NCBI GenBank assembly: GCA_964593365.1
Contig: CAZQGQ010000001.1
Coordinates: forward strand, 50,153-114,152
DNA: 64,000 nucleotides
Origin: an uncultured Candidatus Saccharibacteria bacterium
GTDB lineage: Bacteria; Patescibacteriota; Minisyncoccia; Phycocordibacterales; Phycocordibacteraceae
Direction of reading: 5' to 3'
Shown here: in pieces, positions 25,597-46,774 of the stretch
Layout: every line of letters starts with the position of its first letter
How positions within the stretch are numbered: position 1 is the first letter of the stretch
Program-made: the position numbers and the translations under genes
Notes under the pieces: generated by a model
Seen by the model: only the letters and a program-made list of their open reading frames with translations
What the model was told of the DNA's origin: nothing
Databases searched by the model: none

Positions 25597-25664
25597 CATT
25601 GACTTTTCTGTGATTTAGCTTATTATTTATTCGCCGCACCGACGCGGTGTTTTAGGGGGCTGTC

Positions 25665-25928
25665 ATGGCTTTCCGTTCATTGATTCTCGTCACTCTCGCC
25701 GCTATTAGTCTTGCTGCATGTGGTCAAGGTCAGGCTGAAGAGCCTGATCCGCTGGTTGCTGGGACGTATCGGTTCGAAGAAGAGACTTCGCCGGCGGTCG
25801 TGAAGTGGAACAACGGTGTTCTCTTCGCGACCTGCCCGGCGGGCTTTCACTTCGAACCGATGTCGTCTTGGCGCGGACAGCAACGCATGGAATGCAAGGT
25901 GAACCCGGCGCCGAGTGACGGCGAATAA
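25665..25928 (+). CDS. Small lipoprotein
   Basis: MAFRSLILVTLAAISLAACGQG, a lipobox. Confidence 0.45.
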   Translation: MAFRSLILVTLAAISLAACGQGQAEEPDPLVAGTYRFEEETSPAVVKWNNGVLFATCPAGFHFEPMSSWRGQQRMECKVNPAPSDGE

Positions 25929-25943
25929 TCGTCGGCAGGGCCT

Positions 25944-27224: not shown

Positions 27225-27260
27225 GCAGGTACGCAGGTGCGTGGCTGGTAGAATGGTTGC

Positions 27261-29311: not shown

Positions 29312-29312
29312 T

Positions 29313-31294: not shown

Positions 31295-32113
31295 CTATGG
31301 ATAGGTTAGTTTTCCCTCTCCTTTGTTTTCCGGAAGTGTACTGTCGATATAACGGAAGAGAGCCTTAATTGTCTCTGCGATTTTCTTGTCAGTTACAATC
31401 ATCGCCCACGGATGGTCTTCAGCGAACGAAATAATAAGAGCTTTATCGTCGTAAGCTGCGAGCTCGATATCAAAATCGAATTCTTTTGGCAAGAATTTAG
31501 TTACACGCAATTGCTGGTCATCAAATTTAGTCATCTCGCGTGACTTAGGACTATCAACTGCAAGTGCGAGCCATTTTATCCCTGCGGCAGGGCGTTTCTT
31601 TAAAATGTAATCAATCCAGTCCATCCCCATGAGGTTGTAGATTGCGTGGATACCAGTGAAACCATAAACAACTTTTTCTTTGTTGTCGTGTACCAGATCT
31701 TCGTACGCTTGTTTGATACCCTCAGCACCGTCAAAGAATTCAAAGTGAGGTCGATAACGTTCTTCTGTATTCCGGAGACGAGCAATCTCAGGTACTACTT
31801 CTGAGACGCGCTTGATGTTTCGGAGAAGTCGTTCTTGCGCACGTTCAAGATAGTCAACCAAAAGGTGTGGTTGTATAGATTGAAAAAGGAGCACTCCGCG
31901 TTCTTCGGAAGAAGTCACGAGACCTTTCTCAATAAGTGACTTTAAGATTCCGTAAAGCGTTGTGCGGTTGAAGTGAGTACGTTTTGCGATGTCGGTTGCA
32001 CGGAGGCCGGAACTTTGTCTTAAAAGAAACACAAAAACTTTAATCTCAGTATCGGAAAGCCCGCTATCCTTCAGGGTCTCAACAAGTGTCTGATCAATTT
32101 TCTCTCGAGTCAT
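31295..32113 (-). CDS. TrmB/MarR-like wHTH transcriptional regulator. Cassette 2 regulator.
   Basis: N-terminus LKDSGLSDTEIKVFVFLLRQSSGLRATDIAKRTHFNRTTLYGILKSLIEKGLV. C-terminal domain with the FFDGAEGIKQAYEDLV motif shared with paralogs. Confidence 0.7.
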   Translation of the reverse strand: MTREKIDQTLVETLKDSGLSDTEIKVFVFLLRQSSGLRATDIAKRTHFNRTTLYGILKSLIEKGLVTSSEERGVLLFQSIQPHLLVDYLERAQERLLRNIKRVSEVVPEIARLRNTEERYRPHFEFFDGAEGIKQAYEDLVHDNKEKVVYGFTGIHAIYNLMGMDWIDYILKKRPAAGIKWLALAVDSPKSREMTKFDDQQLRVTKFLPKEFDFDIELAAYDDKALIISFAEDHPWAMIVTDKKIAETIKALFRYIDSTLPENKGEGKLTYP

Positions 32114-32120
32114 AATAACT

Positions 32121-32143
32121 GTTGTCGGAATTTATCAACAATA
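32121..32143. promoter_or_regulatory. Putative operator half-sites (TTGTCGGAA ... ATCAACAA), with a second TTTTGTCGGATAAT at 32207-32220
   Basis: Repeated TTGTCGGA in the divergent intergenic region. TATAAT at about 32201-32206 lies just upstream of the SBP start. Confidence 0.35.
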
Positions 32144-32220
32144 ATACCCTTCTGCTTGACAAAGAACAAGTAGGGAACATACTTTCGTCCAAGTGCGCAT
32201 TTATAATTTTGTCGGATAAT

Positions 32221-33348
32221 ATGAACAAAAATTGGCTGATCTCGGCAGTTGTACTTGTTGTTGTGATTATCGGCGGTTGGCTTCTGTTAAAAGAAGGTAA
32301 CCAGGGCACATCAGAAACGGGCCCAATTAAGATTGGTGTTTCGGTTCCGCTTACGGGCGAAGCGGCGAGTTATGGAGAGGCTGGACGTGCTGGTCTGATG
32401 TTGGCTTTAAAAGAAATAAATGATGCTGGCGGTATTGATGGGCGTTCCGTTGAACTAATTATTGAAGACGATAAATGTAGTTCTGCGAGCGTTAGTGCAT
32501 ATCAGAAACTTATCAACGTAGACAAGGTGGTCGCCATTATTGGGCCAGTGTGTTCTCCGGCTGCAGGACCAGCTAACCCTATCGCACGTGAGGCAGGGGT
32601 TCCAAGTATTATGATTGGCGCTTCGGCTCCGGGTCTTGCTGGAGGGGACGACTCTGTTTTCAGCGGATATGCGTCAGACGCTCTTCAGGGACAGTTCGTT
32701 GCAGAGTACGTATACAACACTCTCGAGAAAAGAAACGTTGCTGTCATGTATGAAAACAACGACTGGGGCAAGGGCATCCAGGAAGTCTTCACTAAGCGCT
32801 TCAAGGAACTCGGTGGCACCATCGTGTTTATCGAAGGGGCAGCTCAAGGTTCAAAGGACGTTAAGTCTATTCTCGCGAAAGTTAAAGCAGCCAATCCAGA
32901 CATGATCTACATGCCTGCGTTCCCTGCACTTGCTACGATCGCTATGAAGCAGATGAAAGAGCTTGAAATTACCGCCCCTGTGATCGGTGGTGATGCCTTT
33001 GAATCTGAAGAATTCTTGACTTCGGGTTTTGCTGACGGTGTCATGTATATCACTGGCGCCGTGGGTAACCCGGATGACTTCCAGGCAAAGGTTAAGGCGG
33101 TATCAGGAGACGACGCGATTATAAACATCGTCACCCCTCTTGGTTACGATGCGCTTAAAATACTCGCGAAGGTTATCGACGAGCGCGGAAGTACAAAGCC
33201 AGAAAGCATAATTGCAGGCCTAAAAGCACTCAGCTACACGGAAGGAATTTCATTTCCAATGATTAGCTTTGATGCTAATGGCGATCTTAGGGAAGCAGCA
33301 TACGATGTGAAAATCGTTCGTGGGACTGAATCCGAAATCGTTAAATAA
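32221..33348 (+). CDS. PBP1/LivJ-family ABC substrate-binding protein, membrane-anchored. Cassette 2 SBP.
   Basis: I prefer the ATG at 32221 (MNKNWLISAVVLVVVIIGGWLLL...IKIGVSVPLTGEAASYGEAG...GGIDGRSVELIIEDDKC). The track ORF starts at 32122. Confidence 0.8.
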   Translation: MNKNWLISAVVLVVVIIGGWLLLKEGNQGTSETGPIKIGVSVPLTGEAASYGEAGRAGLMLALKEINDAGGIDGRSVELIIEDDKCSSASVSAYQKLINVDKVVAIIGPVCSPAAGPANPIAREAGVPSIMIGASAPGLAGGDDSVFSGYASDALQGQFVAEYVYNTLEKRNVAVMYENNDWGKGIQEVFTKRFKELGGTIVFIEGAAQGSKDVKSILAKVKAANPDMIYMPAFPALATIAMKQMKELEITAPVIGGDAFESEEFLTSGFADGVMYITGAVGNPDDFQAKVKAVSGDDAIINIVTPLGYDALKILAKVIDERGSTKPESIIAGLKALSYTEGISFPMISFDANGDLREAAYDVKIVRGTESEIVK

Positions 33349-33361
33349 AAGGAGAAATAGC

Positions 33362-33397
33362 AAAACCGGCCGCTACTGTGCGGCCGGTTTTGCTTTG
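33362..33397. terminator. Bidirectional terminator between SBP2 and regulator 3
   Basis: AAAACCGGCCGC-actgt-GCGGCCGGTTTTGCTTTG. Confidence 0.65.
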
Positions 33398-34206
33398 TAG
33401 TTTTCGGTCCCAAGTTCTTGGGCTCCCTTCCATGCAAGATCAAAGATGATTCGCATCATACGATGCAAGGACTTGTCTTCGATGATAAACCCCGAAGGGT
33501 GGCGAGGATTAAGATTTGTAATAAGCATCTTGCTGTCGCCATAGATAATAATCTCTCCCTCAAGCGGAAAATCTTTTGGCGGGAGATAACGTACTTTAGG
33601 TTTAAAACGTGAAGGAACATCCGAATGCACATCTTCAACAACTACCCGCGATTCTTCCGTTGCGGGAAGTATCCCACGAACCGTTATTCCTATCTCAACC
33701 TTACGTTTGCGAAATTTCCGATAGTATTTCTCATCAAGAAATTCGAGAATGTTTGCTGAGTTAGCGATACTAAGTAATTCGTAAGGCTTATCACCTGCGA
33801 CTAAATCGTCGTAAACCGATAGTACCCCCTCTGCTCCTTCAAAATATAGCAACCGCGGTTTATTAGTGTGGTCGGCAAAGTATCCTTGGAGTTCAGGTAA
33901 CAGACTCTGTACTTGCTCCACCGCATCATTTGCGTTTGCCGCATTTCGCTCTGCAAGACGGAGAAGTTTTTTAGGGTTATCAATCTGATAATAAATCTTC
34001 TTTCCGCGTTCAATCTCGTTTACGAGCCCTTTTACACTTAGGTCTGTAAGGATCTTGTAGACCGTACTTCGATTAACACGTGTCTCAGTAGCTATATCAG
34101 AGGGATATGCCCCTCCCATCTCTAGAAGGTAGGAATAAATTATTGACGCTTTCTGTGAAAGCCCGGTTTCCTGGAGGTTGGCTACAATCCGTTTAGCAAG
34201 TTCCAT
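33373..34206 (-). CDS. TrmB/MarR-like wHTH regulator. Cassette 3 regulator.
   Basis: LQETGLSQKASIIYSYLLEMGGAYPSDIATETRVNRSTVYKILTDLSVKGLV; YFEGAEGVLSVYDDLV. Confidence 0.7.
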   Translation of the reverse strand: MELAKRIVANLQETGLSQKASIIYSYLLEMGGAYPSDIATETRVNRSTVYKILTDLSVKGLVNEIERGKKIYYQIDNPKKLLRLAERNAANANDAVEQVQSLLPELQGYFADHTNKPRLLYFEGAEGVLSVYDDLVAGDKPYELLSIANSANILEFLDEKYYRKFRKRKVEIGITVRGILPATEESRVVVEDVHSDVPSRFKPKVRYLPPKDFPLEGEIIIYGDSKMLITNLNPRHPSGFIIEDKSLHRMMRIIFDLAWKGAQELGTENYKAKPAAQ

Positions 34207-34324
34207 AACGTTTAGAGAAGTGTATCATTATTTGTCACTTCATACGAACAAAATTAATATCAAGCTTAAAAGAGAGCCTACATTAAGCATATTTGTGTTA
34301 TTTGAAGGTAGCAAACGCGTACAC

Positions 34325-34347
34325 CATTTGACACATATGTGTAAATG
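34325..34347. promoter_or_regulatory. Imperfect palindrome CATTTGACACATATGTGTAAATG immediately upstream of the SBP3 start codon (putative operator)
   Basis: Symmetric about CATATG and 8 nt upstream of the ATG at 34356. A second TTTGTCAC...GAACAAA element lies at 34229-34254. Confidence 0.4.
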
Positions 34348-34355
34348 TCCGGTAT

Positions 34356-35456
34356 ATGAAAACAAACACACTGCTTGTTATAGGGGTCTTGATTGTCGTG
34401 GTTGTGGGCGGCTGGTTCGTTCTTAACGAAAAGGATGGATCAGAACAATCTGAAACCGTTAAAATCGGCCTTATTCTTCCTCTAACCGGGGATCTTGCTC
34501 ACTTCGGAGAGGCGGGACAACGGGCTGCCTCTCTCGCTATTGAGGAAATCAATGCAAACACAGGATTCAGCTATAACTATGAACTTGTAATCGAAGATGA
34601 CTCATTCGATGCAAGAAAAACAGCAAGTGCACTCAATAAGCTAATCAGTGTTGATAGAGTAGATGCGGTTGTCAGTGTTGGTTCCGGCCCAGGCAACGTG
34701 GTAGCCCCCATTGTTGAGAAGAATAAAATCCCCCATATTGGTCTTGCGTCTGATCCTGTTGTTTCGGATGGGGAATACAACTTCATCCATTGGACTCGAC
34801 CTCAAGAAGAAGTAGACACCATGCTTACTGAACTTAAGGAGCGTGGTCTAACCCAGGTTGCAGTTATGGGTGTCAATCACCAAGGCTTTCAAGCGATAAC
34901 AGATGACTTCAAGGCAAAGGCGTCTAAAGCTGGAATTACGATAGTAAGCGATCAACTCTTTAACACGGGTGAGACTGACTTTAAAACAGTCATCGTAAAC
35001 TCACAGCGCACCAACCCAGACGTCTATCTTCTTGGAGCGTTTAGTCCTGAAGTCGAAATCCTCGCAAAGCAAATGAAAGAGCTTGGCATAACCAAACCAC
35101 TAACCTCAATTGAATCGTTTGGACTTAGTGCAACACCAGAAGTGTTTGAAGGGCACTGGTTTATTGATTCCGCCGTTGTCACTGGGGGATTCAGCGATAA
35201 GTATCGTGCAAAATACAATGCCGCCGTCGGTCCTACTGCTGCCAACATCTATGACGCGCTTAATCTAATAGTGCTCGCTACGGAGGAAGCAGGTAAAGAT
35301 AATCGCCCAACCGGGACTGACATTGCTGTTGCTCTTGGAAAAGTAAAAGGATATTCAGGCGCATTTGGTCCTCTTTCTGTTAGTCCAGAGGGACAGTTCA
35401 TCTCACAGCCTTCAGTAAAGATAATTAGCAACGGGAAACCGACGGAGGTTGAGTAA
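34356..35456 (+). CDS. PBP1/LivJ-family substrate-binding protein, membrane-anchored. Cassette 3 SBP.
   Basis: MKTNTLLVIGVLIVVVVGGWFVL...VKIGLILPLTGDLAHFGEAG. Confidence 0.8.
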   Translation: MKTNTLLVIGVLIVVVVGGWFVLNEKDGSEQSETVKIGLILPLTGDLAHFGEAGQRAASLAIEEINANTGFSYNYELVIEDDSFDARKTASALNKLISVDRVDAVVSVGSGPGNVVAPIVEKNKIPHIGLASDPVVSDGEYNFIHWTRPQEEVDTMLTELKERGLTQVAVMGVNHQGFQAITDDFKAKASKAGITIVSDQLFNTGETDFKTVIVNSQRTNPDVYLLGAFSPEVEILAKQMKELGITKPLTSIESFGLSATPEVFEGHWFIDSAVVTGGFSDKYRAKYNAAVGPTAANIYDALNLIVLATEEAGKDNRPTGTDIAVALGKVKGYSGAFGPLSVSPEGQFISQPSVKIISNGKPTEVE

Positions 35457-35468
35457 AAGTGAATTCCG

Positions 35469-35503
35469 AAACCGCCCGCATATGCGGGCGGTTTTCTTAT
35501 TTA
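35469..35503. terminator. Bidirectional terminator
   Basis: AAACCGCCCGC-atat-GCGGGCGGTTTTCTTATTT. Confidence 0.65.
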
Positions 35504-36255
35504 GAGACACTCTTTTTTTCCGAAGGAAGTGTTTCCCAAATCACCTTGAACCATGTTCGGAAACTGTCAGCGATGTTTTGGTTCACAATGACCGTATAGG
35601 TTGCAGATTCATCTATTACGCCCGGTTCGATATTGGAGAAGATAATAATGCGGTCTTTGAGAATCTCAACGGCAGAGTTAGTTGATCGAGAAGATGGGAA
35701 GAACTTATTGTCAGACATATCGAGTACGGAGGGAACTGCGGCTCTGGCCTCGTGGTCGAAGATGGCGTAGAAAGTTATGTTCTTCCGTCGAACTTCTTTT
35801 ACAAATTGATCATAGAAGGACGCAATTCGTTTATCTCCCCATGCGCCCTTGGCTCCAAGGGTGTGGACGTCTTCACCTGCGCGCAAAATCTCGCGCATGT
35901 AATTCTTCCAACCTTCAAGTCCGCGATACACATATGTCGCATCTGTTTTGTTTATCACACGGTACTTTGCCTCAAGGTCAGGCATGATCTTCTCAAGAGC
36001 AGTCTCCTTCTCTTTGATGAGCTCCATCAGTTTCTTGGGATCAACCGCCTGGTAACGGTTCTCACCCGTCTGAAGTATTTCAAAAACCACACCCTTCTCT
36101 ATAAGGCGATTCAGAGAGTCATAAACGTTTCTGCGGTTTACCCCTGAATGGACCGCAATCTTACTTACCGACATCTCTCCTTCAGAGAGAAGGGATTCGT
36201 AGATTCGTGCCTCGTTTTTGGAGAAGTTGAGCTGGGTGAGAACGTCAGTAAACAT
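35497..36255 (-). CDS. TrmB/MarR-like wHTH regulator. Cassette 4 regulator.
   Basis: I prefer the ATG at 36255 (MFTDVLTQLNFSKNEARIYESLLSEGEMSVSKIAVHSGVNRRNVYDSLNRLIEKGVV). It aligns with the paralog at 45272. YVYRGLEGWKNYMREIL motif. Confidence 0.7.
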   Translation of the reverse strand: MFTDVLTQLNFSKNEARIYESLLSEGEMSVSKIAVHSGVNRRNVYDSLNRLIEKGVVFEILQTGENRYQAVDPKKLMELIKEKETALEKIMPDLEAKYRVINKTDATYVYRGLEGWKNYMREILRAGEDVHTLGAKGAWGDKRIASFYDQFVKEVRRKNITFYAIFDHEARAAVPSVLDMSDNKFFPSSRSTNSAVEILKDRIIIFSNIEPGVIDESATYTVIVNQNIADSFRTWFKVIWETLPSEKKSVSK

Positions 36256-36356
36256 TGAGGTGTAGATTATCACCATATGGCCATATATGCCACTCATGAG
36301 TAATAACTTACGCTTCCCCGGCATTGGCAGTTACTAAACCCCTGCCAGTAAAACGT

Positions 36357-37436
36357 ATGAAAACAAAGGTTATTTTCGGTTTGCTGGCGATTGTGGCAGT
36401 CGCCCTGCTTATCGGCACGTCAGACAAGGAAGCTGATTCTGAGTCAGAAATCAAGATTGGAGTGGTAACTCCTCTCACCGGAGGGGCTGCCTATTGGGGA
36501 GAATCTTCTCTCGTTGGAATCAGGCTCGCAGAGCAGGAACTCCAAGAGAAAGGGATTCCGGTCCGGGTGATTGTTGAAGATGGGGAGCTTGATCCGAAGC
36601 TTGCCCTAAGCGGTGCACAGAAGCTCGTGAATATAGATGGCATTGATGCCATGTATACCGAGTTCAATCCGGCCGTCATCGCAGTAAGCTCGTTCCTTCA
36701 AGATAAAGATCTTATCCAGATCTGCAACGCGACTCCGGTTTCCCCACTTGCTCTAAGCGAAAACTTCTTCAAAACGTACTTAGATTACGAAGAAAGCTGC
36801 GAGCAAGTGGCGAACGTCCTGCAAGGTCGTGGCCACACGAAAGTTGGGGTTCTGAAAATGAACCTCGAACACGGAGACCTGTGCTTGAAAGGAATACGAA
36901 ACGTGTTTGGCGATAACGTTGTGGTCGAAAACTACAACACTGGAATAGTTGACTTCCGGACCCCTCTTGCAAAGCTTGAAGCCTCCGGAGTCCAGGTCAT
37001 CTTCCACGCTGCGTTTCAGGCCGAGACGTTGGCATCGCTACGAAATATGCGCGAGCTTGGGATGTCGCAGCCGTTCGTCGGCCTTGCTGAGACCATGACT
37101 CCTGGTGTCGCTGAGGAGTTCGAAGACGTGCTAGAGGGGGCTGTAGTCTTTGGGCTTCCGACAGTGTCTCCTGACCTACTTGCAAGACTGAATACGGTTG
37201 CGGTCGATGAGAAGCTTGTAGACCAAAATGCGGCTGCTCTCGCGTATCTTCATATCACGCAACTTGGCGAGGCTCTTAGCGAGTGTAAAAAAGAGACAGC
37301 CTGTGTACGAGAGAAGTTGAAACAGTCCCCCGCGAATGCAGGCGTAGGATTCCAGGGTTTTACGGATCGCATTGCCGGGTTCGATACGCTCATCCAGGAA
37401 TGGAAAGATGGGCAATTTGTCCCCGTTTCTGAATAG
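36357..37436 (+). CDS. PBP1/LivJ-family substrate-binding protein. Cassette 4 SBP.
   Basis: I prefer the ATG at 36357 (MKTKVIFGLLAIVAVALLIG...IKIGVVTPLTGGAAYWGE). Confidence 0.8.
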   Translation: MKTKVIFGLLAIVAVALLIGTSDKEADSESEIKIGVVTPLTGGAAYWGESSLVGIRLAEQELQEKGIPVRVIVEDGELDPKLALSGAQKLVNIDGIDAMYTEFNPAVIAVSSFLQDKDLIQICNATPVSPLALSENFFKTYLDYEESCEQVANVLQGRGHTKVGVLKMNLEHGDLCLKGIRNVFGDNVVVENYNTGIVDFRTPLAKLEASGVQVIFHAAFQAETLASLRNMRELGMSQPFVGLAETMTPGVAEEFEDVLEGAVVFGLPTVSPDLLARLNTVAVDEKLVDQNAAALAYLHITQLGEALSECKKETACVREKLKQSPANAGVGFQGFTDRIAGFDTLIQEWKDGQFVPVSE

Positions 37437-37452
37437 GTCGCTACCAACGTTT

Positions 37453-37484
37453 ACCGCCCGTCTATACGGGCGGTTTTCGTTTAT
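37453..37484 (+). terminator. Rho-independent terminator between SBP4 and livH
   Basis: ACCGCCCGT-ctata-CGGGCGGTTTTCGTTTAT. Confidence 0.6.
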
Positions 37485-37496
37485 ACTAGGGAAAAC

Positions 37497-38372
37497 ATGG
37501 ACATCGTCCCGCAGCTTATCGTCAACAGCCTCATCGCAGGCTCTCTCTACGCGCTTGTCGCGATGAGCTTCAATCTCATCTTCGGCGCGACCAAGTTCTT
37601 CAATCTCTCGCACGGCGTCTTGGCCGCTGTAGGCGGATATACCGCCTTCTTCCTTGGAACGACGCTTGGAGCTCCGGTTTCAGTTGCGGTAGCTGGGGCA
37701 GTGATTGCTGCTGCGGCAATCGGATATGGATTCGAGTTCTTTATCTTCCGCCCGCTTCGAAAACGAAAGGCATCAAACCTCGTTCTCCTCGTTGCTTCCT
37801 TAGGAGCCTTTACCGCAGTTGAGGCCATTATTGCCATTCTCTTCACGAGCCAATTCCGAACGCTTTCCTCGCTTACCGGAACGCCAGGCGTCGTCCACCT
37901 TGGAACAGGCGTGATGACGTATGTGCAGGTAGTCATCCTTGCTTCAGCCGTAGCAATCCTAATTCTTCTCTGGCTCGTGCTCACGCGTACTTCCTTTGGA
38001 AAGGCGGTACGAGCCGTCTCTGATGATGAAGAGGTCGCAAAGATTGTTGGAATTAATACGAACAAGATCATCGGCATCGTTTTTATCGTAGGATCTGCGA
38101 TCGCAGGACTTGCTGGCGTATTCGCTGGCATGGATACGGGCATCGAGCCTCGCATGGGCTTCGTACTTCTATTGAAGGGAGTTATCGCTGCAATTGTTGG
38201 CGGCATTGGAAGCGTGTATGGCGGATTCCTGGGAGCCTTCCTTCTTGGCTTTGCCGAGAACTTCGGTATTTGGTACATCAGCGGAGAGTGGAAGGACGCG
38301 ATCGCTTTTGCGATTCTGATCATCTTCTTGCTTGTACGCCCGCAAGGAATCTTGGGTAAGAAGAAAACATAA
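37497..38372 (+). CDS. livH: Branched-chain amino acid ABC transporter permease (LivH-type)
   Basis: 291 aa, 8 TM. BPD_transp_2 pattern. Ends ...LVRPQGILGKKKT. Confidence 0.85.
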   Translation: MDIVPQLIVNSLIAGSLYALVAMSFNLIFGATKFFNLSHGVLAAVGGYTAFFLGTTLGAPVSVAVAGAVIAAAAIGYGFEFFIFRPLRKRKASNLVLLVASLGAFTAVEAIIAILFTSQFRTLSSLTGTPGVVHLGTGVMTYVQVVILASAVAILILLWLVLTRTSFGKAVRAVSDDEEVAKIVGINTNKIIGIVFIVGSAIAGLAGVFAGMDTGIEPRMGFVLLLKGVIAAIVGGIGSVYGGFLGAFLLGFAENFGIWYISGEWKDAIAFAILIIFLLVRPQGILGKKKT

Positions 38373-38375
38373 TTT

Positions 38376-39242
38376 ATGGAATATCTTATTCACCTGGCGA
38401 TCCTGTTCTCGATCTTCGCAATATTGGCTGTATCTCTCCAGCTTCTTGTCGGATACACCGGCCTTCTCTCCGTTGCCCATGCCGCTTTCTACGGTATCGG
38501 GGCATACGTAGTTGCGCTCACTCTTTCCAATACCGGGTTTGGATTTTTCCCAGCGCTTCTCATGGGAATACTCATAAGCGCGGCAGCGGCCTTCTTGATT
38601 GGTCTGGTGCTCTCGAAGTTCCGTGATGATTACTACGCGCTTGGCTCCCTAGGCTTCAACGTCATCGTATTCTCGATATTCCTTAACTGGCAGGAGGTAA
38701 CACGGGGTCCGCTAGGTATCCCGGGAATCGATCGGCCACAGCTCTTTGGTTTTGTTTTTTCAGAGAACATCGCCTTCCTTATTCTTGCTCTCGTATTTCT
38801 CCTCATTATTTATGGGATCGGGAAATTCATAACGGAGTCTTCTTTCGGGCGCGCGCTCCAGGCGATACGCGAGGACGAACAGGCGCTTTCAGTATTCGGG
38901 TACCGCACCTCATGGTTCAAGCTTGCGATCTTTGTCGTGAGCGCCGCGATGGCGTCAGTTGCAGGCGGACTCTTCGCTTCCTATATAACGTTCATTGATC
39001 CAAGCTCGTTCACGATCGTTGAGTCGATCTTCATGCTCTCCCTTATTATCCTTGGCGGACTCGGTACGCTTCGTGGAGCTATCCTTGGCGCTCTCGTGCT
39101 CATCCTCCTTCCGGAAGCGCTTCGCTTCGTTGGCTTTACGCCAGACATCGCAGCCCAGATGCGCCAAGTGATCTACGGCCTCATGCTCGTCCTTCTTATG
39201 CTGTATCGGCCGCAGGGACTGGTTGGTAAGTACAAGCTTTAG
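38376..39242 (+). CDS. livM: Branched-chain amino acid ABC transporter permease (LivM-type)
   Basis: 288 aa. GLLSVAHAAFYGIGAY...LGGLGTLRGAILGALVL. Confidence 0.85.
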   Translation: MEYLIHLAILFSIFAILAVSLQLLVGYTGLLSVAHAAFYGIGAYVVALTLSNTGFGFFPALLMGILISAAAAFLIGLVLSKFRDDYYALGSLGFNVIVFSIFLNWQEVTRGPLGIPGIDRPQLFGFVFSENIAFLILALVFLLIIYGIGKFITESSFGRALQAIREDEQALSVFGYRTSWFKLAIFVVSAAMASVAGGLFASYITFIDPSSFTIVESIFMLSLIILGGLGTLRGAILGALVLILLPEALRFVGFTPDIAAQMRQVIYGLMLVLLMLYRPQGLVGKYKL

Positions 39243-40105
39243 TTTGTCACTAGTGTTTTGATCTCTTTTCGTATAGCCTCAGCGCGCTTAACATTGCGAG
39301 TTATCGTAAGTGTTGTTTTGCCTGTTTGATTCACAATGCTTTGCATTTCTCTGGCATTAAACTCAGTAAGGTTCTTTACCCCCTCGAACATTGCCTTTAT
39401 ATCTTGGAAAATAAAGTTAGGCACTTTAGTTTCGAAGACAAAGTCTCCAATAACGGTTACGTGGAAGTTATCGCTCGGAGCGCCGTAACCTGAAAGCTTG
39501 CTGTAGAGTTTGAAGTGAAAATTGGAGGCGTTATGAAGCTGGGGTACCAGGCGATTGAGAAGGGTGTGTGAGCCGCTCGCCATATACCAGTCGATATTCA
39601 TGGGCTCAAACCCATGCGCAAGCTCAACTGAACCGTCAGAGCGAAGCACTTGAATCCAAGAATAGTAATTCTTGCTATATGCATTCTTGTCCTTGTGGTC
39701 GTTGTCTCGATAATAGTATGAGATTGTCAGGAGTGCGTGGTCCCAGAACGTATCCATCTCTGTCACACGATCAAATACATAGGCTTTGGTTTCGCCCTCC
39801 TCAAGAATGATAGTTGCCTTGGTGATTTCGTTTGAAAGATGCGTTTGCTTTACTCGATCCGTGAATTTTATGAGGTTCTGTACCCAGGCACTGTAAAGAG
39901 AAAGCGTGCCGTTGTTTTTAACTATCACGCGGTCTGCAAGAAGCTGGCGCAGGATCTTATAGAACCCTTGAAGAGTCATGCCAGAAGGGTATTTGCTGAG
40001 AAAGAACTCAAAAGCCTCCTTGCTTGTTATGCCCGGTTTACGGGACAAAATATCAAGCACTATCCCTTCAGGGGAGGGTTTTTGTTCGTAGGGGTTAGGA
40101 ATCAT
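39239..40105 (-). CDS. Divergent putative regulator occupying the regulator slot of cassette 5 (weak wHTH-like N-terminus, no clear TrmB motif)
   Basis: 288 aa. LDILSRKPGITSKEAFEFFLSKYPSGMTLQGFYKILRQLLADRVIV could be a winged helix. The C-terminal domain is unlike the other seven regulators. Confidence 0.4.
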   Translation of the reverse strand: MIPNPYEQKPSPEGIVLDILSRKPGITSKEAFEFFLSKYPSGMTLQGFYKILRQLLADRVIVKNNGTLSLYSAWVQNLIKFTDRVKQTHLSNEITKATIILEEGETKAYVFDRVTEMDTFWDHALLTISYYYRDNDHKDKNAYSKNYYSWIQVLRSDGSVELAHGFEPMNIDWYMASGSHTLLNRLVPQLHNASNFHFKLYSKLSGYGAPSDNFHVTVIGDFVFETKVPNFIFQDIKAMFEGVKNLTEFNAREMQSIVNQTGKTTLTITRNVKRAEAIRKEIKTLVTN

Positions 40106-40206
40106 AGGGAGTAAACGTTTCGTTTAGAATAGTATAATAGTTGATTAACTGTTTACTTTTGTCAACTACATCGTAGAGTGCTGCCGTACCAAATAACGGC
40201 ACACAT

Positions 40207-41301
40207 ATGCAAAACGTACGACAGTTAGTAACTCTGGTTGCGGCAGTTCTGGTTGTTCTTGGTGGTGCGTATGTGCTTTCCCAAGGCTCTTCAAGCTCTA
40301 GTGATACCGTGAAGATTGGGTTCATTGGTCCACTTACCGGATCGATGGCGAGCATTGGTGAATCAAGTCTTGCGGGCGCCATGCTCGCCGTAAAGGAGAT
40401 AAATGATAAAGGAGGTCTTCTTGGGAAAGAGGTTGAGCTTATCGTTGAAGACGACAAATGCTCTGCTGACGGAGCAACGGCGATTAGTAAACTTATTAAC
40501 GTAGATAAAGTAGTCGCTATCTCCGGCCCTGATTGTGGAGCCTCAGGCTCTGCGGCGCTTCCTATAGCAGAAGAAAAGCAAACTCCGGTTGTCATTCGTT
40601 GGGCATCCGCTCCTCCTCTTGCGAAGATAGGAGAGTATATTTTCCGTATCTATCCTTCAGATGCGTTTCAGGGGAGGTTTGTCGCTGATTACATCTTCAA
40701 CGAGCGAAAGGAACGGAAAGTAGCTGTTCTCTACGTCAAAAACGTATGGGGTCAGGGCATTACCGAAGTGTTTGTCGAACGGTTTAAAGAGCTTGGGGGC
40801 GAAGTAGTGTTTGAGGAAGGGGTGCTTGAAGACACTCGGGATCTTAAGACTCAGTTGAACTTGATACAGAATTCAGGCGCAGACATTCTCTTTGCGCCGC
40901 TCTACGCACCAAACGGGGTTATCGCACTTCGACAGATGAAGGAGCTTGGGTTCAAGATCCCCGTTGTCGGAGGAGACGTATTTGAAAGTGCTGAAGTTCA
41001 GGAGGCTCCTGGCGCAACTGGCGTTCTATTCTCAGCTGCGATCATCACAAACCCAGGAGACTTCCAAGCGCGTGTAGCGAAAGAGGTAGGGCGCGACGGG
41101 AGTCGAGTGACTGCGCCACTGGGGTACGACTCGGTCATGGTTATCGCTCAGGCAATTGAGCGCGCTGGCTCTCTGGATCGAGAAGGGATTCGAGATGCCC
41201 TTCAAGAAACGTCATACGCAGGAGTTGCGTTCCCCATGATTGAATTCGATCAAGACGGAGACCTGCTTGAGGCACGGTACGAAATTAAAAAGATCCACTA
41301 A
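40207..41301 (+). CDS. PBP1/LivJ-family substrate-binding protein. Cassette 5 SBP.
   Basis: MQNVRQLVTLVAAVLVVLGGAYVL...VKIGFIGPLTGSMASIGESS...GGLLGKEVELIVEDDKC. Confidence 0.8.
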   Translation: MQNVRQLVTLVAAVLVVLGGAYVLSQGSSSSSDTVKIGFIGPLTGSMASIGESSLAGAMLAVKEINDKGGLLGKEVELIVEDDKCSADGATAISKLINVDKVVAISGPDCGASGSAALPIAEEKQTPVVIRWASAPPLAKIGEYIFRIYPSDAFQGRFVADYIFNERKERKVAVLYVKNVWGQGITEVFVERFKELGGEVVFEEGVLEDTRDLKTQLNLIQNSGADILFAPLYAPNGVIALRQMKELGFKIPVVGGDVFESAEVQEAPGATGVLFSAAIITNPGDFQARVAKEVGRDGSRVTAPLGYDSVMVIAQAIERAGSLDREGIRDALQETSYAGVAFPMIEFDQDGDLLEARYEIKKIH

Positions 41302-41305
41302 AAGA

Positions 41306-42082
41306 TTAATCTTTCACGATTAATGTTGATACATCCCACACTAACTCAAACTGGGACCGTAGAAAGTCCGCAAAGTCCTTACTTCGAACTACGAACCCGT
41401 ATGCTTCGCGTTTGGAGGAAATAAAGGCTGCGGTGTGGCCAGAGAGCCAATACCCCATACTAAGCGTCTTCATGTTCTTGGGGGCCATACGGACTTCCCG
41501 CATCGACTCATTACCAACTTTCGGATTGAACTGTCGGTTTAAATTATCTAAATCGTCAGTGTACGACCATATACCCCGTACATATATTTTATTCTTTATT
41601 CGCTTCTCAACGATGTCGACCATATTCTCTGCGCCAAGAAGATTAACCACGTCTTCGATGGACCACATAGCGATACTATCGGTGTCGCCGGAATAAACAA
41701 TCTGATTCAGTGCTTGCTTTACACCTTCCTTTCCCGAATAGAACTTGAATTTGGGATCAACGGATTCGAACTGCTGCATCAAGGCAGGGATTTCAAGCGC
41801 GACCCGATCTCGCTCTTCTGCCAAGTGTTCAATCTTGTCATTAAGAAGGCGGGTGAGTTGCTTAGGATCGTCTACCTGATAAAGGTTCTTTGTTCCTTCA
41901 AATCGTTCGACAACCAGTCCCCGGTTTATTAACGCCTTGAGATAGTCGTAGGTGGATTGTCTATTTATCTCTAAACGTTCCGCAATTTGTTTGGCCGATG
42001 AAGGCCCATATTCCAGTAGGGAGGCGAACACCTGATGACTTGCCTCAGAAAGGCCTAGTTCCTCAAATGTCTGTTTAAGCAT
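41306..42082 (-). CDS. TrmB/MarR-like wHTH regulator. Cassette 6 regulator.
   Basis: FEELGLSEASHQVFASLLEYGPSSAKQIAERLEINRQSTYDYLKALINRGLV; FYSGKEGVKQALNQIV. Confidence 0.7.
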   Translation of the reverse strand: MLKQTFEELGLSEASHQVFASLLEYGPSSAKQIAERLEINRQSTYDYLKALINRGLVVERFEGTKNLYQVDDPKQLTRLLNDKIEHLAEERDRVALEIPALMQQFESVDPKFKFYSGKEGVKQALNQIVYSGDTDSIAMWSIEDVVNLLGAENMVDIVEKRIKNKIYVRGIWSYTDDLDNLNRQFNPKVGNESMREVRMAPKNMKTLSMGYWLSGHTAAFISSKREAYGFVVRSKDFADFLRSQFELVWDVSTLIVKD

Positions 42083-42101
42083 GTAGATACTATATGCCTC
42101 A

Positions 42102-42124
42102 GTTGTCGAGTTGTCGACGACACA
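42102..42124. promoter_or_regulatory. Putative operator: tandem GTTGTCGA GTTGTCGACGACA (contains a GTCGAC palindrome)
   Basis: Lies in the 80 bp divergent intergenic region between regulator 6 and SBP6. Confidence 0.4.
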
Positions 42125-42161
42125 TTTACATCAGGACGTATTTGGAATAAAGTCAAGGGCA

Positions 42162-43298
42162 ATGAAAAACATATTCTGGATTGGAGCGGCAGCTGTCCTC
42201 CTTGGGATCATTACTATCTTTAGCATTTCAGGCCCTAAGCCTGCTTCCGGAGAACCGATAAAAATTGGAATCTCAACCATGCTGAGCGGAGACTACGCTG
42301 CACTGGGGGACAATATTGTAAAAACAGCAGAATTGGCTGTTGCTGAAGTTAACGTCAAAGGAGGTATTAATGGAAGGCCACTGGAGCTTGTAGTTCAGGA
42401 TGCAGGCCTTGATAGTAAGACCGGTCTTGCGGCAGCACAAAAACTTATTAACGTTGACGGCGTTAAATATATTATTGGCGGTACATCCAGTAACGGTACG
42501 CTTGCTGCAGCTCCATTGGCAAATGAGCACAAGGTTATTTATATGACCCCCGTTACAGGCGGAGCAAATGTGGACTCTGCTGGCGAATATATCTTCCGCG
42601 TTGCAAATGGTGACCTCCTTGCTGGTAAGCAGCTTGCAGAAGCAGCAGTGAAGCTCGGGTACAAGAACGTTGCAGTTGTAGCTGAAGTTACTGAATACAC
42701 TCTCGACATCAAGAAGAGTTTCGAAGAAGCGATTAAAGACCAAGGAGCAGTAGTTGTTGCATCTGAGGAGTTTCAGCCAGGGACGACCGACTTCAGAACT
42801 ATTATTGCGAAAGTGAAAACGCAAAACCCTGAAGCCATTCTTATCGTCTCTCAAACGGGAGTGGGCGGGGCAAACTTCGTAAAACAATCTCGAGAAGCGG
42901 GTATAGAAGCACCCCTCTTCTCAGACTTTAACTTTGTAGCAAATACGAGCGCCAAAGAAATAGTTGGATCGTTTGAGGGAATTTATTTTGCTGACCCTGC
43001 GTATGGAGCAGACGCAGGAGAAACAAAAGCGTTCTTTGAGAGATACGAAATAGCATATGGTTCTCAACCCTTTATTCCTTTTCACTCAGCATCTACATAT
43101 GACTCGGTCATGATGGTTGCTGACGCCCTTAAGGCTGTGGGAGATGACAGCATAAAAGTGCACGACTGGCTTCTGGGTGAAGTACAGAACCGCAAAGGAC
43201 TTATGGGGACATTCTCTATTGATCAGCAAGGAAACTCAGATTTAGGCTTTGTTATTAAGGTTATACGAGATGGGAAACCGGAGGTGGTTTTCAATTAA
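42162..43298 (+). CDS. PBP1/LivJ-family substrate-binding protein. Cassette 6 SBP.
   Basis: I prefer the ATG at 42162 (MKNIFWIGAAAVLLGIITIF...IKIGISTMLSGDYAALGD). Confidence 0.8.
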   Translation: MKNIFWIGAAAVLLGIITIFSISGPKPASGEPIKIGISTMLSGDYAALGDNIVKTAELAVAEVNVKGGINGRPLELVVQDAGLDSKTGLAAAQKLINVDGVKYIIGGTSSNGTLAAAPLANEHKVIYMTPVTGGANVDSAGEYIFRVANGDLLAGKQLAEAAVKLGYKNVAVVAEVTEYTLDIKKSFEEAIKDQGAVVVASEEFQPGTTDFRTIIAKVKTQNPEAILIVSQTGVGGANFVKQSREAGIEAPLFSDFNFVANTSAKEIVGSFEGIYFADPAYGADAGETKAFFERYEIAYGSQPFIPFHSASTYDSVMMVADALKAVGDDSIKVHDWLLGEVQNRKGLMGTFSIDQQGNSDLGFVIKVIRDGKPEVVFN

Positions 43299-43317
43299 AA
43301 TACGCTACACTATTCGA

Positions 43318-44049
43318 GTGAACACACTCGAGACCAAAGACCTCGCAAAAGTATTCGGCGGCGTGAAAGCTGTTAACGGTCTTTCTGTCTCCATTCCAAA
43401 GGGAAAGATTACGGGTGTCATTGGTCCAAATGGATCAGGTAAAACGACGCTTACGAACGTTCTCACAGGAATCTATCCTATAGATGGAGGTGTCGTTGTT
43501 ATCGAAGGCAAGGAACGCTCAAAGATAAAATCGCATGAGGTGTTTTCACTTGGCCTCACGCGCACCTTCCAAAACGTACGGGTGTTTGAGCAGGTAAGCG
43601 TGCTTGATAACGTGCTTATCGCACTCACGCGTCGCAACATCCTAGGCTCTTTGTTTGAGCGCGCTAATGGAGAACACGCAAAGAAAGCACAAGAAGTACT
43701 TGAGCGTGTAGGGCTCTGGGATAAGCGAGAGGCAAACGCCTCAGAACTTTCATACGGACAAAGAAAGCTTCTTGAGATTGCTCGCGCGCTTGCAACTGGC
43801 ACAAACACTATTCTTTTTGACGAACCATACGCAGGACTGTTCCCTGAGATGGTGAAGCTTGTCTCAAGCATCATGCGAGATCTCCGAAGCGAAGGGAAAA
43901 CCATCGTGCTTATCGAACACGACATGGCGCTTATTCGGGAACTCTGCGACTACGTTATCGTCATGGATGCAGGAAAACTTCTCGCGCACGGAACCGCAGA
44001 AGAAGCGCTTTCCAATAAGGCAGTTATTGAGGCGTACTTGGGCGTGTAG
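43318..44049 (+). CDS. livG: ABC transporter ATP-binding protein (LivG-type)
   Basis: LETKDLAKVFGGVKAV...GPNGSGKTT...LSYGQRKLLEIARAL...ILFDEP...EAYLGV. The TTG-initiated track ORF (43249) overlaps the SBP by 50 nt out of frame. The GTG at 43318 is a more plausible start. Confidence 0.8.
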   Translation: MNTLETKDLAKVFGGVKAVNGLSVSIPKGKITGVIGPNGSGKTTLTNVLTGIYPIDGGVVVIEGKERSKIKSHEVFSLGLTRTFQNVRVFEQVSVLDNVLIALTRRNILGSLFERANGEHAKKAQEVLERVGLWDKREANASELSYGQRKLLEIARALATGTNTILFDEPYAGLFPEMVKLVSSIMRDLRSEGKTIVLIEHDMALIRELCDYVIVMDAGKLLAHGTAEEALSNKAVIEAYLGV

Positions 44050-44050
44050 G

Positions 44051-45160
44051 CTATCTGTCGATAGATACGAAGGCTCCGTTTCGGATTACCTTGAATGAGG
44101 TTGGTTTATAGGCTGTTCCGTCTGTCTCGATACTTATGGAGCCACTGACGCCATCATAGTTTTTTACTGAGTGAAAGAATTCAAGCATGCAGTCGGTTTC
44201 ATCTGCGCAGCGGTCATAGGCAGCCGACTCAAGCATGAGTCCGTCATAGGCGTTTCGAGCAAAGACGTCGGCTTCTTGGCCAAATCGTTCTTTGTAGCGA
44301 CGATTAAAGTCGAGCACATCCTCACTTGGAGGAAGCGGTTCGTCAGAAGAGATGTAAAACCCCTCTGCGGAAGCTCCTGCAATTTCAATGACACTAGGAT
44401 CCTCGTTCTGGGAGTTCCCTAGTATACGAGCCTCTATTCCAAGCTCGTCTGCTTGTTTTAGAAGATTGCCCAGAGGTTTCGCTAGTTGCACAACGAATAT
44501 GACATCTGGGTTCTTTTCCTTAATTTTTGTAAGCTCAGTCCGAAAGTCTGACGCGTCTATGAGCGTGACTTGTTCAAGCAGGACTTCACCGCCGCGCTCT
44601 TCGAATGCCGTCGAGAAGTGCTTGCGGTAGTCTTCGCCAAGCGGGGTGTTGTAGTAGAGGATTGCTGCTGTCTTTGCGCGCAGTGTATTTGCAGCAAACG
44701 TTCCAAGTTCAGTTGCTTTGAGTTTGATGGATGTGTTGGTCGAGACTACGTATGTATGACCAAGAACTGAATCCGGATTGGGAGCCAGGTTTACACCGAT
44801 TAGCTGATGCTTTTCTAGGAGATCAATGACTGGTACAAAGCCTGCTACGCAAAATGACCCGCCTAGTAGAGTGATGCGGTCACTTTCGATAAGTTTCGTA
44901 ATTGCAGAAAGGGCATCTTTAGGTTGGCACGCATCTTCGTAGATGACCTCGACTATAGAGCCCCGAGCAGCCAAGTCTTCTTTTGCAAGTTCAAAGCCAT
45001 TGCGTACTCGTTCTCCCAGCACGGCAAAGTTGCCTGACAGGGGAATCAAAACACCAACACGCAGCCCTTCCTTCTTTGGCCCTTGGGAAAGCTGAAAACC
45101 AAGGATCACGGCGGCAAGGATAATCACAACCGCACCGACTACCAGATGGCTCTTATTCAT
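44051..45160 (-). CDS. PBP1/LivJ-family substrate-binding protein. Cassette 7 SBP.
   Basis: MNKSHLVVGAVVIILAAVILG...LRVGVLIPLSGNFAVLGE. Confidence 0.8.
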   Translation of the reverse strand: MNKSHLVVGAVVIILAAVILGFQLSQGPKKEGLRVGVLIPLSGNFAVLGERVRNGFELAKEDLAARGSIVEVIYEDACQPKDALSAITKLIESDRITLLGGSFCVAGFVPVIDLLEKHQLIGVNLAPNPDSVLGHTYVVSTNTSIKLKATELGTFAANTLRAKTAAILYYNTPLGEDYRKHFSTAFEERGGEVLLEQVTLIDASDFRTELTKIKEKNPDVIFVVQLAKPLGNLLKQADELGIEARILGNSQNEDPSVIEIAGASAEGFYISSDEPLPPSEDVLDFNRRYKERFGQEADVFARNAYDGLMLESAAYDRCADETDCMLEFFHSVKNYDGVSGSISIETDGTAYKPTSFKVIRNGAFVSIDR

Positions 45161-45173
45161 GGTTTCTGCAAGT

Positions 45174-45187
45174 TATTGACAACGTGC
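45174..45187. promoter_or_regulatory. TTATTGACAACGTG motif (TTGACAAC half-site shared with other cassettes)
   Basis: Lies in the divergent intergenic region between SBP7 and regulator 7. Confidence 0.3.
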
Positions 45188-45271
45188 AGAGGTTAGGATG
45201 TATACTACGAGTGGCCAATATCACCGCGTGGTGGCACACACCACCAACATAAGAAACACCATATAAACTCT

Positions 45272-46018
45272 ATGTATAGTGAAATCCTCTCGAAACTAGA
45301 CTTATCGAAGAATGAGTCCAAGATTTATGAAACTCTCCTTGAGGAAGGAGAGTCATCGGTAGGATTCATTGCTACCAAATCGAAGATAAACAGGAGAAAC
45401 GTATACGACTCCATGAATCGTCTTGTAGAAAAAGGGCTCGTCTTTGAAATATTCCAGAAGAACGAGAATCAATATAAAGCTGTGGGTCCGCACAAGCTTC
45501 TAGACCTCCTCAAGGAAAAAGAATCGGCGCTCATGTCGATCATGCCGAATTTAGAAAAGCTCTACAATGGTGTTGCGCACGAAGAAGATGTTTACTTATA
45601 CAAAGGTATTGAGGGTTGGAAGAATTTTATGCGCGATATTCTTCGGATTAACGAGGATGTATATATCATTGGAGGGAAAGGGGCTTGGGCTGATCCCAAA
45701 CTTGATGGCTTTCGAGAGGACTTTCTTAAAGAGGCAAAGAAGCAGGGTATAGAGATACATGTCCTCTATGATCCCGAGATTCAAGAAAAGAATCATCCGA
45801 TTCTTTCGCTCCTCAACAGCACACACCGCTTTTTGCCGAAAGGACTGTCTTCAGCTGGAGCAGTGACGGTCTTCGGTAATCAAGTTGTTATGCAGTCGGC
45901 TATCAAGGTGGGGCAAATACAAGAAAACGTCACTTCAACCGTTCTTATCAATGAACCCATTGCCGAGATGTTTCGTATCTGGTTCAAGCTCATGTGGGAG
46001 GCTAGCGAGAAACCATAA
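45272..46018 (+). CDS. TrmB/MarR-like wHTH regulator. Cassette 7 regulator.
   Basis: MYSEILSKLDLSKNESKIYETLLEEGESSVGFIATKSKINRRNVYDSMNRLVEKGLV; YLYKGIEGWKNFMRDIL. Confidence 0.7.
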   Translation: MYSEILSKLDLSKNESKIYETLLEEGESSVGFIATKSKINRRNVYDSMNRLVEKGLVFEIFQKNENQYKAVGPHKLLDLLKEKESALMSIMPNLEKLYNGVAHEEDVYLYKGIEGWKNFMRDILRINEDVYIIGGKGAWADPKLDGFREDFLKEAKKQGIEIHVLYDPEIQEKNHPILSLLNSTHRFLPKGLSSAGAVTVFGNQVVMQSAIKVGQIQENVTSTVLINEPIAEMFRIWFKLMWEASEKP

Positions 46019-46030
46019 AAGGTTATTTCC

Positions 46031-46774
46031 TTGAGGTACAATATTTCTGTGTCTAAAGAAACTCTACTCAAACTCAACGATATTCACGTCCACTACGGAG
46101 GCGTGAAGGCACTTGATGGCGCGTCAGTCACTTTGGACGAAGGAGAGATTGTCGCGCTCATGGGACCAAATGGCGCAGGCAAATCAACGATCCTTAAAGC
46201 GCTCTTCGGTCTTGCTCCGATAAAAGCAGGGGCAGTGCTTTGGGAAGGACATGCATTCACTCCTGTTCCTCATGAAGTAGTAGACCGCGGCATAGCTTTT
46301 GTTCCTCAGGGACGCCGTGTGTTTGCCGATCTTACCGTCGAAGAGAACCTCGAGATCGGCGGATTCAAAGTAGGGAATGCTCGCTTAATCAAAGAACGAA
46401 TACAAGAACTTTACGAACTCTTCCCGGTGTTGAAGGAGAAGCGACATGCGAAATCAGGAACACTTTCTGGAGGACAGCAGCAGATGCTCGCTATCTCCCG
46501 CGGCCTTATGACCGATCCTAAAGTCCTTCTTCTCGATGAGCCTTCCCTCGGTCTTTCTCCGAAGTTCGTTACCGAGATCTTCGCGTTCGTGAAAGATATT
46601 AACGAAAAGCGGAAAACCTCGATCATGGTCGTCGAGCACAACATCAAATCTCTCCTTACTATCGCCACCCGTGGCTACATCCTCGATAAAGGGAAGGTAG
46701 TCGCTCACGGCTCTCCGCAGGAACTAGTATCCAAAGGTACGCTCGAAAAGGTCTTCACCGGGGCTGCGCTCTAA
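46031..46774 (+). CDS. livF: ABC transporter ATP-binding protein (LivF-type), TTG start
   Basis: LLKLNDIHVHYGGVKAL...GPNGAGKST...LSGGQQQMLAISRGL...LLLDEPSLGLSP. Confidence 0.8.
   Translation: MRYNISVSKETLLKLNDIHVHYGGVKALDGASVTLDEGEIVALMGPNGAGKSTILKALFGLAPIKAGAVLWEGHAFTPVPHEVVDRGIAFVPQGRRVFADLTVEENLEIGGFKVGNARLIKERIQELYELFPVLKEKRHAKSGTLSGGQQQMLAISRGLMTDPKVLLLDEPSLGLSPKFVTEIFAFVKDINEKRKTSIMVVEHNIKSLLTIATRGYILDKGKVVAHGSPQELVSKGTLEKVFTGAAL

Follow-up and report, generated by a model that had tools for sequence, protein, structure and literature searches.

Which kind of protein occupies the regulator position of the fifth transporter cassette in a 64,000-nucleotide stretch of an uncultured Candidatus Saccharibacteria genome (contig CAZQGQ010000001.1; the whole stretch is hereafter called the window) was the question raised by this locus. 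The cassettes of this window form an array of genes for LivK-type solute-binding proteins (SBPs) and TrmB-like regulators, and the five TrmB-like regulators match the TrmB family PF01978 at 1e-12 to 1e-17. The regulator position of the fifth cassette is taken by a gene for a protein of 288 amino acids (aa), for which the original prediction had offered two explanations: either the cassette had taken in a regulator of another fold, or a TrmB paralog had diverged beyond recognition. The evidence presented here indicates that the protein is probably a sequence-specific, dimeric and autoregulated transcription factor, belonging to a large unannotated family of Patescibacteria that represents a remote branch of the TrmB structural superfamily. 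The genes concerned are as follows.

39239..40105, minus strand: the studied gene, an open reading frame of 288 aa, member of an unannotated Patescibacteria family
40207..41301, plus strand: SBP5, a Peripla_BP_6 (LivK-type) binding protein (Pfam E 3e-62), divergent neighbour and possible co-regulated gene
31295-32113, 33373-34206, 35497-36324, 41306-42082 and 45272-46018: the TrmB-like genes (PF01978), arranged likewise, each divergent from an SBP gene

The placement had been read correctly, as the studied gene is divergent from the gene of a Peripla_BP_6 SBP across a spacer of 101 bp, in the same manner as the TrmB-like genes, and its stop-codon end overlaps the end of the permease gene 38376-39242 by 4 bp.

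The protein family and its TrmB-type architecture

For the 288-aa protein, no Pfam or NCBIfam match was obtained at E<=1, PF01978 included; PADLOC and Rfam returned nothing, and PHROGs gave a chance-level match only (E 0.28). By BLASTP, the closest of the five cassette paralogs scored only E 2.1, although these paralogs recognise one another at 1e-8 to 1e-87; the non-homology claimed for the protein therefore holds by sequence. The Tyr/Asn-rich character ascribed to its C-terminal part proved to be only marginal, with 5.3% Tyr and 7.4% Asn against 2.7–5.1% and 2.3–5.7%, respectively, in the paralogs.

The open reading frame is a real, conserved gene. Its close homologs form 40 clusters with identities of 38–76%, all of about 290 aa, all annotated as 'hypothetical' and without a Pfam domain. 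A narrow subfamily profile (A1), made from 33 of these close homologs, was searched against 1.84 billion representative proteins and recovered 1490 matches at E<=1e-3 (counted as clusters at 50% identity) and 587 at E<=1e-10, nearly all of which are 270–290 aa long and aligned over their full length. In a further, word-indexed search, the family profile retrieved nothing but unnamed or 'hypothetical' proteins. Among the 92 diverse family members that make up a broad profile (A5), no consistent Pfam family was observed; weak FUR (PF01475) matches appeared in 17 of the 92 and weak TrmB (PF01978) matches in two, the best at 0.0027. The family loci from reference genomes, for 14 of which the taxonomy is known, are titled Paceibacteria/Paceibacterota, Moranbacteria, Peribacteria, Saccharibacteria and Gracilibacteria. 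When the hidden Markov model (HMM) of the family was run against the six-frame translation of the window, a single member was found, and the TrmB paralogs of the window were not touched even at E<=10.

The AlphaFold (AF2) model of the protein, built from A1 with a pLDDT of 85.4, comprises a winged helix, a long helix and an alpha/beta domain, which correspond to the following parts of the gene.

39896..40072, minus strand: N-terminal winged helix-turn-helix, residues 12–70, modelled as helices 12–22, 28–38 and 45–57 with wing strands 61–64 and 67–70 (pLDDT ~90)
TLQGFYKILRQLL: recognition helix, residues 45–57, with the nearly invariant Tyr49
39809..39892, minus strand: long helix after the wing, residues 72–99, modelled as helices 72–90 and 92–99, presumed dimerisation helix by analogy with alpha5 of TrmB
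39242..39805, minus strand: C-terminal alpha/beta domain, residues 101–288, of PLD-like fold without an HKD motif, presumed sensor domain

The stretch that had been described as weakly resembling a winged helix-turn-helix is a true winged helix in this model, and Tyr49 in its recognition helix is kept in 93% of the 92 diverse members. The long helix is of low confidence at residues 85–95 (pLDDT <50), and its position matches that of the helix 75–104 of the cassette paralog 41306-42082, which was also modelled (pLDDT 87.2); in TrmB, alpha5 is the coiled-coil dimerisation helix (PMC4158304). The order of elements is identical in the two models up to the beta-hairpin, and the C-terminal domain of the 288-aa protein ends in extra helices not present in the paralog. 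The best Foldseek match in the PDB was full-length Pyrococcus furiosus TrmB (3qph; E 2.5e-6, 290 columns), with further PLD-fold matches to NucT (6ehi; E 8.5e-6, TM 0.62–0.65, target-normalised), Zucchini, PLD, PPK and SauUSI. The fold matches of the paralog model were TrmBL2, TrmB (3qph), the TrmB sugar-binding domain (2f5t) and Nuc (1byr); TrmBL2 was its top match, yet it is missing from the 50 best fold matches of the 288-aa protein. No second C-terminal beta-barrel was found, as the modelled protein ends after the PLD-like domain.

The catalytic HKD motif, HxK(x)4D(x)6GSxN, was not found in the PLD-like domain: the equivalent hairpin, NFHVTVIGDFVFETK, is without Lys, position 215 is H or W, and the consensus of the broad family at this hairpin is Y.V.GDYI.E. 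An enzymatic role is unlikely because this motif is absent. The broad family keeps His (92%), Glu (82%) and Asp (91%) at the positions of residues 148, 159 and 184 of the domain, where the studied protein has Tyr, Ser and Asn (window ~39554-39664, minus strand); in the subfamily alignment the first position is Tyr or Phe, and the last is Asn, in all 33 members. Together, these positions might make up a metal or ligand site, altered in this branch.

The relationship to TrmB was assessed by hhalign, with E-values that represent single pairwise comparisons, using profiles of the cassette paralogs (A2 and A3). The narrow profile A1 gave nothing significant against A2 and A3, while the broad profile A5 aligned with A3 at a probability of 85% and an E-value of 6.5e-6 over 238 columns, joining residues 9–288 of the protein with residues 11–258 of the paralog. 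A full-length rerun gave 1.6e-5 against about 0.6 for reversed-profile controls; the N-terminal domains alone gave 1.1e-5, and the C-terminal domains alone 1.2e-3 against 0.13–0.58 for mismatched or column-shuffled controls. The alignment sets Tyr49 of the family on the invariant Tyr of the cassette paralogs and thereby makes it the counterpart of Tyr50 of P. furiosus TrmB, a residue required for DNA binding (PMC4158304). Searches of PDB sequences with the family profiles recovered no TrmB, only one chance desaturase match and Fur DNA-binding domains, among them 6dk4 (E 4e-6, profile positions 12–66); the paralog profile, by the same direct route, reaches TrmB at 1.5e-11 and TrmBL2 at 3e-6. 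The 288-aa protein is a remote relative within the TrmB structural superfamily and not an ordinary PF01978 member, because the broad profile aligns over the full length while direct searches reach only Fur. The ordinary TrmB-family member that a sensitive profile search could have revealed was accordingly not encountered, since PF01978 stayed silent and the family profiles missed TrmB in the PDB.

The promoter and proposed operator module of the family

The sequence-specific function proposed for the protein has indirect support in a conserved module at its own promoter. The 80 nt upstream of 15 orthologs were aligned, and palindromes were counted in 18 loci (252 kb, GC 30–53%) that span 24–76% protein identity and have unrelated neighbours. 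In 13 of the 15 aligned promoters the same order was observed, consisting of TTGACA, 3 nt, GTAAACAnTTAGTCTA (an imperfect TAAAC-N5-GTCTA), a TATAAT-like box at 17-nt spacing, 6–10 nt, the palindrome TAAAC-N5-GTTTA, 2–44 nt and the ATG, and the TTGACA box is conserved upstream of orthologs whatever gene adjoins. The perfect palindrome occurs 17 times in the 252 kb, against 0.51 expected from base composition; it is present in 17 of the 18 loci, once in each and always at the promoter of the family gene, and in the remaining locus (L012) it is one base off. In L015 and L017, the other two of the 15, the palindrome stands upstream of a two-gene operon whose last gene is the family gene. The distant members exhibit the same 6-N5-6 layout with other half-sites, such as TTCAAC-N5-GTTGAA (L028), TTATCA-N5-TGATAA (L025–L027) and ATAAAC-N5-GTTGAA (L023), and in L024 the palindrome was not found. 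The geometry is that of the TGM site of TrmBL1/Tgr, TATCAC-N5-GTGATA, likewise 6-N5-6, which represses when it overlaps the transcription start (PMC4158304). The TTATCA-N5-TGATAA of L025–L027, which are Peribacteria members, lies before the ATG (e.g., L026 5830-5880), and its core resembles the archaeal TGM site. In the window, the module consists of the following elements, read from the -35 box toward the start codon.

40160..40165, minus strand: -35 hexamer TTGACA of the gene's own promoter, core of TTTTGTCAAC (40157-40166)
40141..40155, minus strand: O1, imperfect copy TAAAC-AGTTA-ATCAA in the -35/-10 spacer, 29 bp centre to centre from O2
40134..40142, minus strand: candidate -10, AACTAT (17-nt spacing) or TATTAT (20 nt)
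40112..40126, no strand assigned: O2, perfect palindrome TAAACGTTTCGTTTA (TAAAC-N5-GTTTA), 7–21 nt upstream of the ATG, proposed main operator

O2 is the sole perfect copy in the window. Sites with one mismatch lie at 41527, within a coding region, and at 45264, at the start of the 45272 gene, and the resulting three sites including O2, against 1.1 expected, are not clearly significant. The left half-site of O1, GTAAAC, is conserved, with GTAAACAnTTA in 13 of the 15 promoters, in most of which the O1 site is TAAAC-N5-GTCTA. In AT-rich relatives, TATAAT stands at 17-nt spacing. For SBP5, a plus-strand TATAAT at 40133-40138 over the candidate -10 is a possible -10 box, and TTTACT-16-TAGAGT (40152-40179) is another candidate promoter; both, like the candidate -10 of the studied gene, were read from the sequence, and neither reached the threshold of a consensus promoter scanner. 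Just upstream of the SBP5 start codon, at 40182-40201, an inverted repeat TGCCGT-N8-ACGGCA was observed that is partly conserved in the relatives L010 and L012 and may be a 5' UTR (untranslated region) hairpin or another operator.

The string TTTTGTCAAC had been noted as a motif in the shared promoter, but it is not common to the cassettes: with one mismatch allowed, the window has it at this promoter and at 16158-16178 and nowhere else, which is below the chance expectation, and the other cassette spacers hold generic TTGACA-like hexamers only. It is the reverse complement of GTTGACAAAA, the promoter element of the studied gene itself with the sigma-70-type -35 hexamer TTGACA; this hexamer accompanies the gene in genomes without an SBP. 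The sole other matches, at 16158-16178, are two adjacent (T)TGTTGTCAAC copies on the minus strand, just inside the start of the open reading frame 16134-16958.

Genomic context, proposed mechanism and alternative explanations

The neighbourhood of the family gene varies greatly between genomes. Divergent pairing with an SBP5 ortholog in an SBP/TrmB array was observed only in the window genome, in L010 (76% identity) and in L012 (73%), where the order of the array differs from genome to genome and the pair of gene and SBP5 is retained together with a spacer of about 100 bp. No SBP was present within 3–8 kb at the other loci examined (L001, L007, L009, L013, L014–L023 and L028–L031), and the neighbours in the SBP-free loci are unrelated, including RNase Y, ClpP, HU, NusA, a sigma factor, RecA and pilus genes. 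A conserved gene partner was sought, and the neighbours were found to vary by locus; the recurring methyltransferases are not orthologous, nor are the small proteins of 107–117 aa. L001 (69% identity) has the T2SSE...T2SSF...TIM-PGK backbone seen in the flanks of the window but no array, and its family gene lies between T2SSE and T2SSF. The corresponding flanks of the window are as follows.

23845-25596: T2SSE
25944-27224: T2SSF
46791-47528: TIM
47525-48658: PGK

The array of the window sits between the type IV pilus cluster (23845-30743) and TIM-PGK (46791-48658), and the counterpart region of L001 is 5439-16876. Because the backbone of L001 has no array, the array of about 15 kb is placed between the pilus genes and TIM-PGK in the lineage of the window, with the gene ending up inside it. 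The array took up a pre-existing regulator with its own promoter, and the protein is not descended from the cassette regulators. Of the two explanations first offered, recruitment is therefore right, because the protein belongs to an ancient, separate and widespread family with its own promoter and operator that usually lies far from an SBP; the different fold is not, given the TrmB-type fold seen by Foldseek and hhalign, and neither is the decayed copy of a cassette regulator. A shared position in a cassette is thus no evidence of common descent. In L001 and L013, whose contexts are otherwise unrelated, the place of SBP5 is occupied by a homologous protein of 235–240 aa (7233-7955 and 7253-7960, respectively), which has no Pfam annotation, is divergent from the family gene and has no homolog in the window.

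In the mechanism proposed for the autoregulated factor, the winged helix with its recognition-helix Tyr would read the DNA, the long helix would probably mediate dimerisation, and the non-catalytic PLD-like domain would probably sense a small molecule. A dimer would use its two winged helices to recognise the 6-N5-6 palindrome (T)TAAAC-N5-GTTTA(A), so that it would bind O2, located between the gene's own -10 region and the ATG, and more weakly O1; occupancy of O2 and O1 would block RNA polymerase and lead to self-repression, and a ligand acting on the PLD-like domain would modulate the binding. The SBP5 promoter would have to overlap O1 and O2, and the regulation of SBP5 is probably coupled to that of the studied gene, because SBP5 has no other divergent regulator and the 101-bp spacer is largely filled by the -35 box, O1 and O2. 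Such control of SBP5, suggested by this geometry and by the three related genomes, is plausible.

Several observations weigh against this reading and are to be set beside the evidence above. The sequence link to TrmB is weak, with nothing found by the narrow profile or by PF01978, and the predicted DNA binding is drawn from sequence and a structural model. The right half of O1 is degenerate in this clade, a consensus promoter scanner called no promoter in the spacer at its 9-of-12 threshold, and no other perfect site exists in the 64-kb window, so that no regulon is visible. The His, Glu and Asp of the broad family are replaced by Tyr, Ser and Asn in the studied protein, and ligand sensing may differ or be lost. 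The pairing with an SBP is confined to three close genomes, and a spacer of 100 bp, being a small target for rearrangement, could simply persist. An RNA hairpin, or the site of another factor, would likewise account for complementarity that is kept through sequence change. The hairpin is less likely because O1, lying between -35 and -10, would not be transcribed, the predicted hairpins are weak (0 to -4.8 kcal/mol), and the stem is invariant in the subfamily while the N5 varies.

The proposal that the factor is autoregulated as described, and that its adjacency to SBP5 is an accident of array insertion or shuffling without any control of the transporter, is a serious alternative, possible though rather unlikely. 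It agrees with the lack of a nearby SBP in most family members, with the same backbone lacking the array in L001, where the gene lies between T2SSE and T2SSF, and with a promoter and operators that are older than the SBP association; it has to accommodate an SBP5 gene without any other divergent regulator, whose promoter must fall in the crowded spacer, and a gene–SBP5 pair that survives three different array orders. A nucleoid role, in which the protein would coat DNA without sequence specificity in the manner of the chromatin protein TrmBL2, appears highly improbable: the strict conservation of the palindrome in front of the gene itself argues for specific recognition, and TrmBL2 falls outside the top 50 fold matches while being the top match of the paralog, even though the TrmBL2-like length, the missing sugar-binding barrel, the single copy in the window and the frequent location among housekeeping genes (RNase Y, ClpP, NusA) would suit such a protein.

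The remaining alternatives concern the origin and the chemistry of the protein. Recruitment of a regulator of an unrelated fold, to which the silence of Pfam, NCBIfam, BLASTP and the narrow profile would lend itself, is very unlikely in view of the full-length TrmB as best Foldseek match, the C-terminal domain in the PLD-like fold class of the paralog, and a full-length, co-linear hhalign match well above the controls. A young paralog of the TrmB-like regulators in the cassettes, changed beyond recognition by rapid divergence, would explain the same slot, the similar length and the same overall architecture, but is given the slightest of chances, since the family comprises 1490 clusters at 50% identity with full-length matches in several Patescibacteria lineages, its promoter is conserved independently of the cassettes, and the five cassette regulators still find each other by BLASTP. 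Scarcely any greater credence attaches to an enzyme of the PLD superfamily, a nuclease or phosphodiesterase of the NucT or Zucchini kind targeted to DNA by a winged helix. In its favour stand the fold matches of the C-terminal domain to NucT, Zucchini, PLD and SauUSI and the conservation of His, Glu and Asp in the broad family; yet the HKD motif is absent, the hairpin contains a variable His and lacks Lys, the family-wide His and Asp are Tyr and Asn in the protein, with the 33 of 33 subfamily members departing from them likewise, and the effector domain of TrmB also gives PLD-fold matches while being non-catalytic.

Comparison with known systems and the surrounding array

The autoregulated factor favoured here resembles TrmB and TrmBL1/Tgr of Pyrococcus and Thermococcus in the order of winged helix-turn-helix, long helix and PLD-like alpha/beta domain and in the Tyr of the recognition helix, and it further resembles TrmBL1/Tgr in that its proposed operator is a 6-N5-6 inverted repeat of TGM geometry just downstream of the promoter, implying autoregulation. 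It differs from TrmB in the missing PF01978 match, in ending at 288 aa, compared with 338, without the sugar-binding barrel at the C terminus (which is also missing from the cassette paralogs and from TrmBL2), in the other half-site, and in its occurrence in Patescibacteria and not in archaea. With the cassette regulators of the window (PF01978, ~250–277 aa) it shares the position relative to the SBP, the three-part architecture, the length and a profile homology of E ~1e-5, whereas pairwise similarity is absent, the cassette regulators match TrmB and TrmBL2 far better by sequence and fold, and they travel with SBPs while the family of the 288-aa protein usually does not. By sequence, Fur DNA-binding domains are the nearest match to the N-terminal winged helix, but the dimerisation or metal-binding domain of Fur is absent and the C-terminal part is PLD-like. 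With the PLD nucleases (Nuc, NucT and Zucchini) the protein shares the C-terminal fold, but it lacks the HKD motif and has an N-terminal DNA-binding domain and a long helix.

Patescibacteria (also known as candidate phyla radiation, CPR) have small genomes with few recognisable regulators, and to our knowledge almost no regulation has been studied experimentally in them. Within the searchable library, our literature search found no papers linking TrmB with Patescibacteria, CPR or Saccharibacteria. We regard it as an evenly balanced prospect that this is the first description of autoregulated factors across Patescibacteria, representing a deep bacterial branch of the TrmB superfamily with a class-spanning, co-changing promoter–operator module (TTGACA, O1, -10, palindrome, ATG), which could be a core regulator and here captured an SBP gene through a shared control region. 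A large family has been missed by annotation pipelines despite a confident fold assignment; the operator TAAAC-N5-GTTTA is precise and testable and can be used for regulon prediction across hundreds of uncultivated genomes, and the variants of protein and operator offer a natural series for studying the evolution of specificity. The importance is moderate, as a TrmB-type architecture is extended and no new class of system is added.

The array itself (window 31295-46774) contains six genes for SBPs of the LivK type, the majority with a divergent TrmB-like regulator as partner, together with only one permease pair (37497-39242) and two ABC ATPase genes (43249-44049 and 46031-46774), and the same parts, shuffled, are present in the relatives L010 and L012. 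SBP5 shares 46% identity with the cassette 1 SBP (32122-33348), the other SBPs being far more distant, and it looks like a duplicate that was parted from its TrmB-type regulator. Because only one permease pair and two ABC ATPase genes are present in the array, a single translocator appears to serve several binding proteins, each of them under a regulator of its own.

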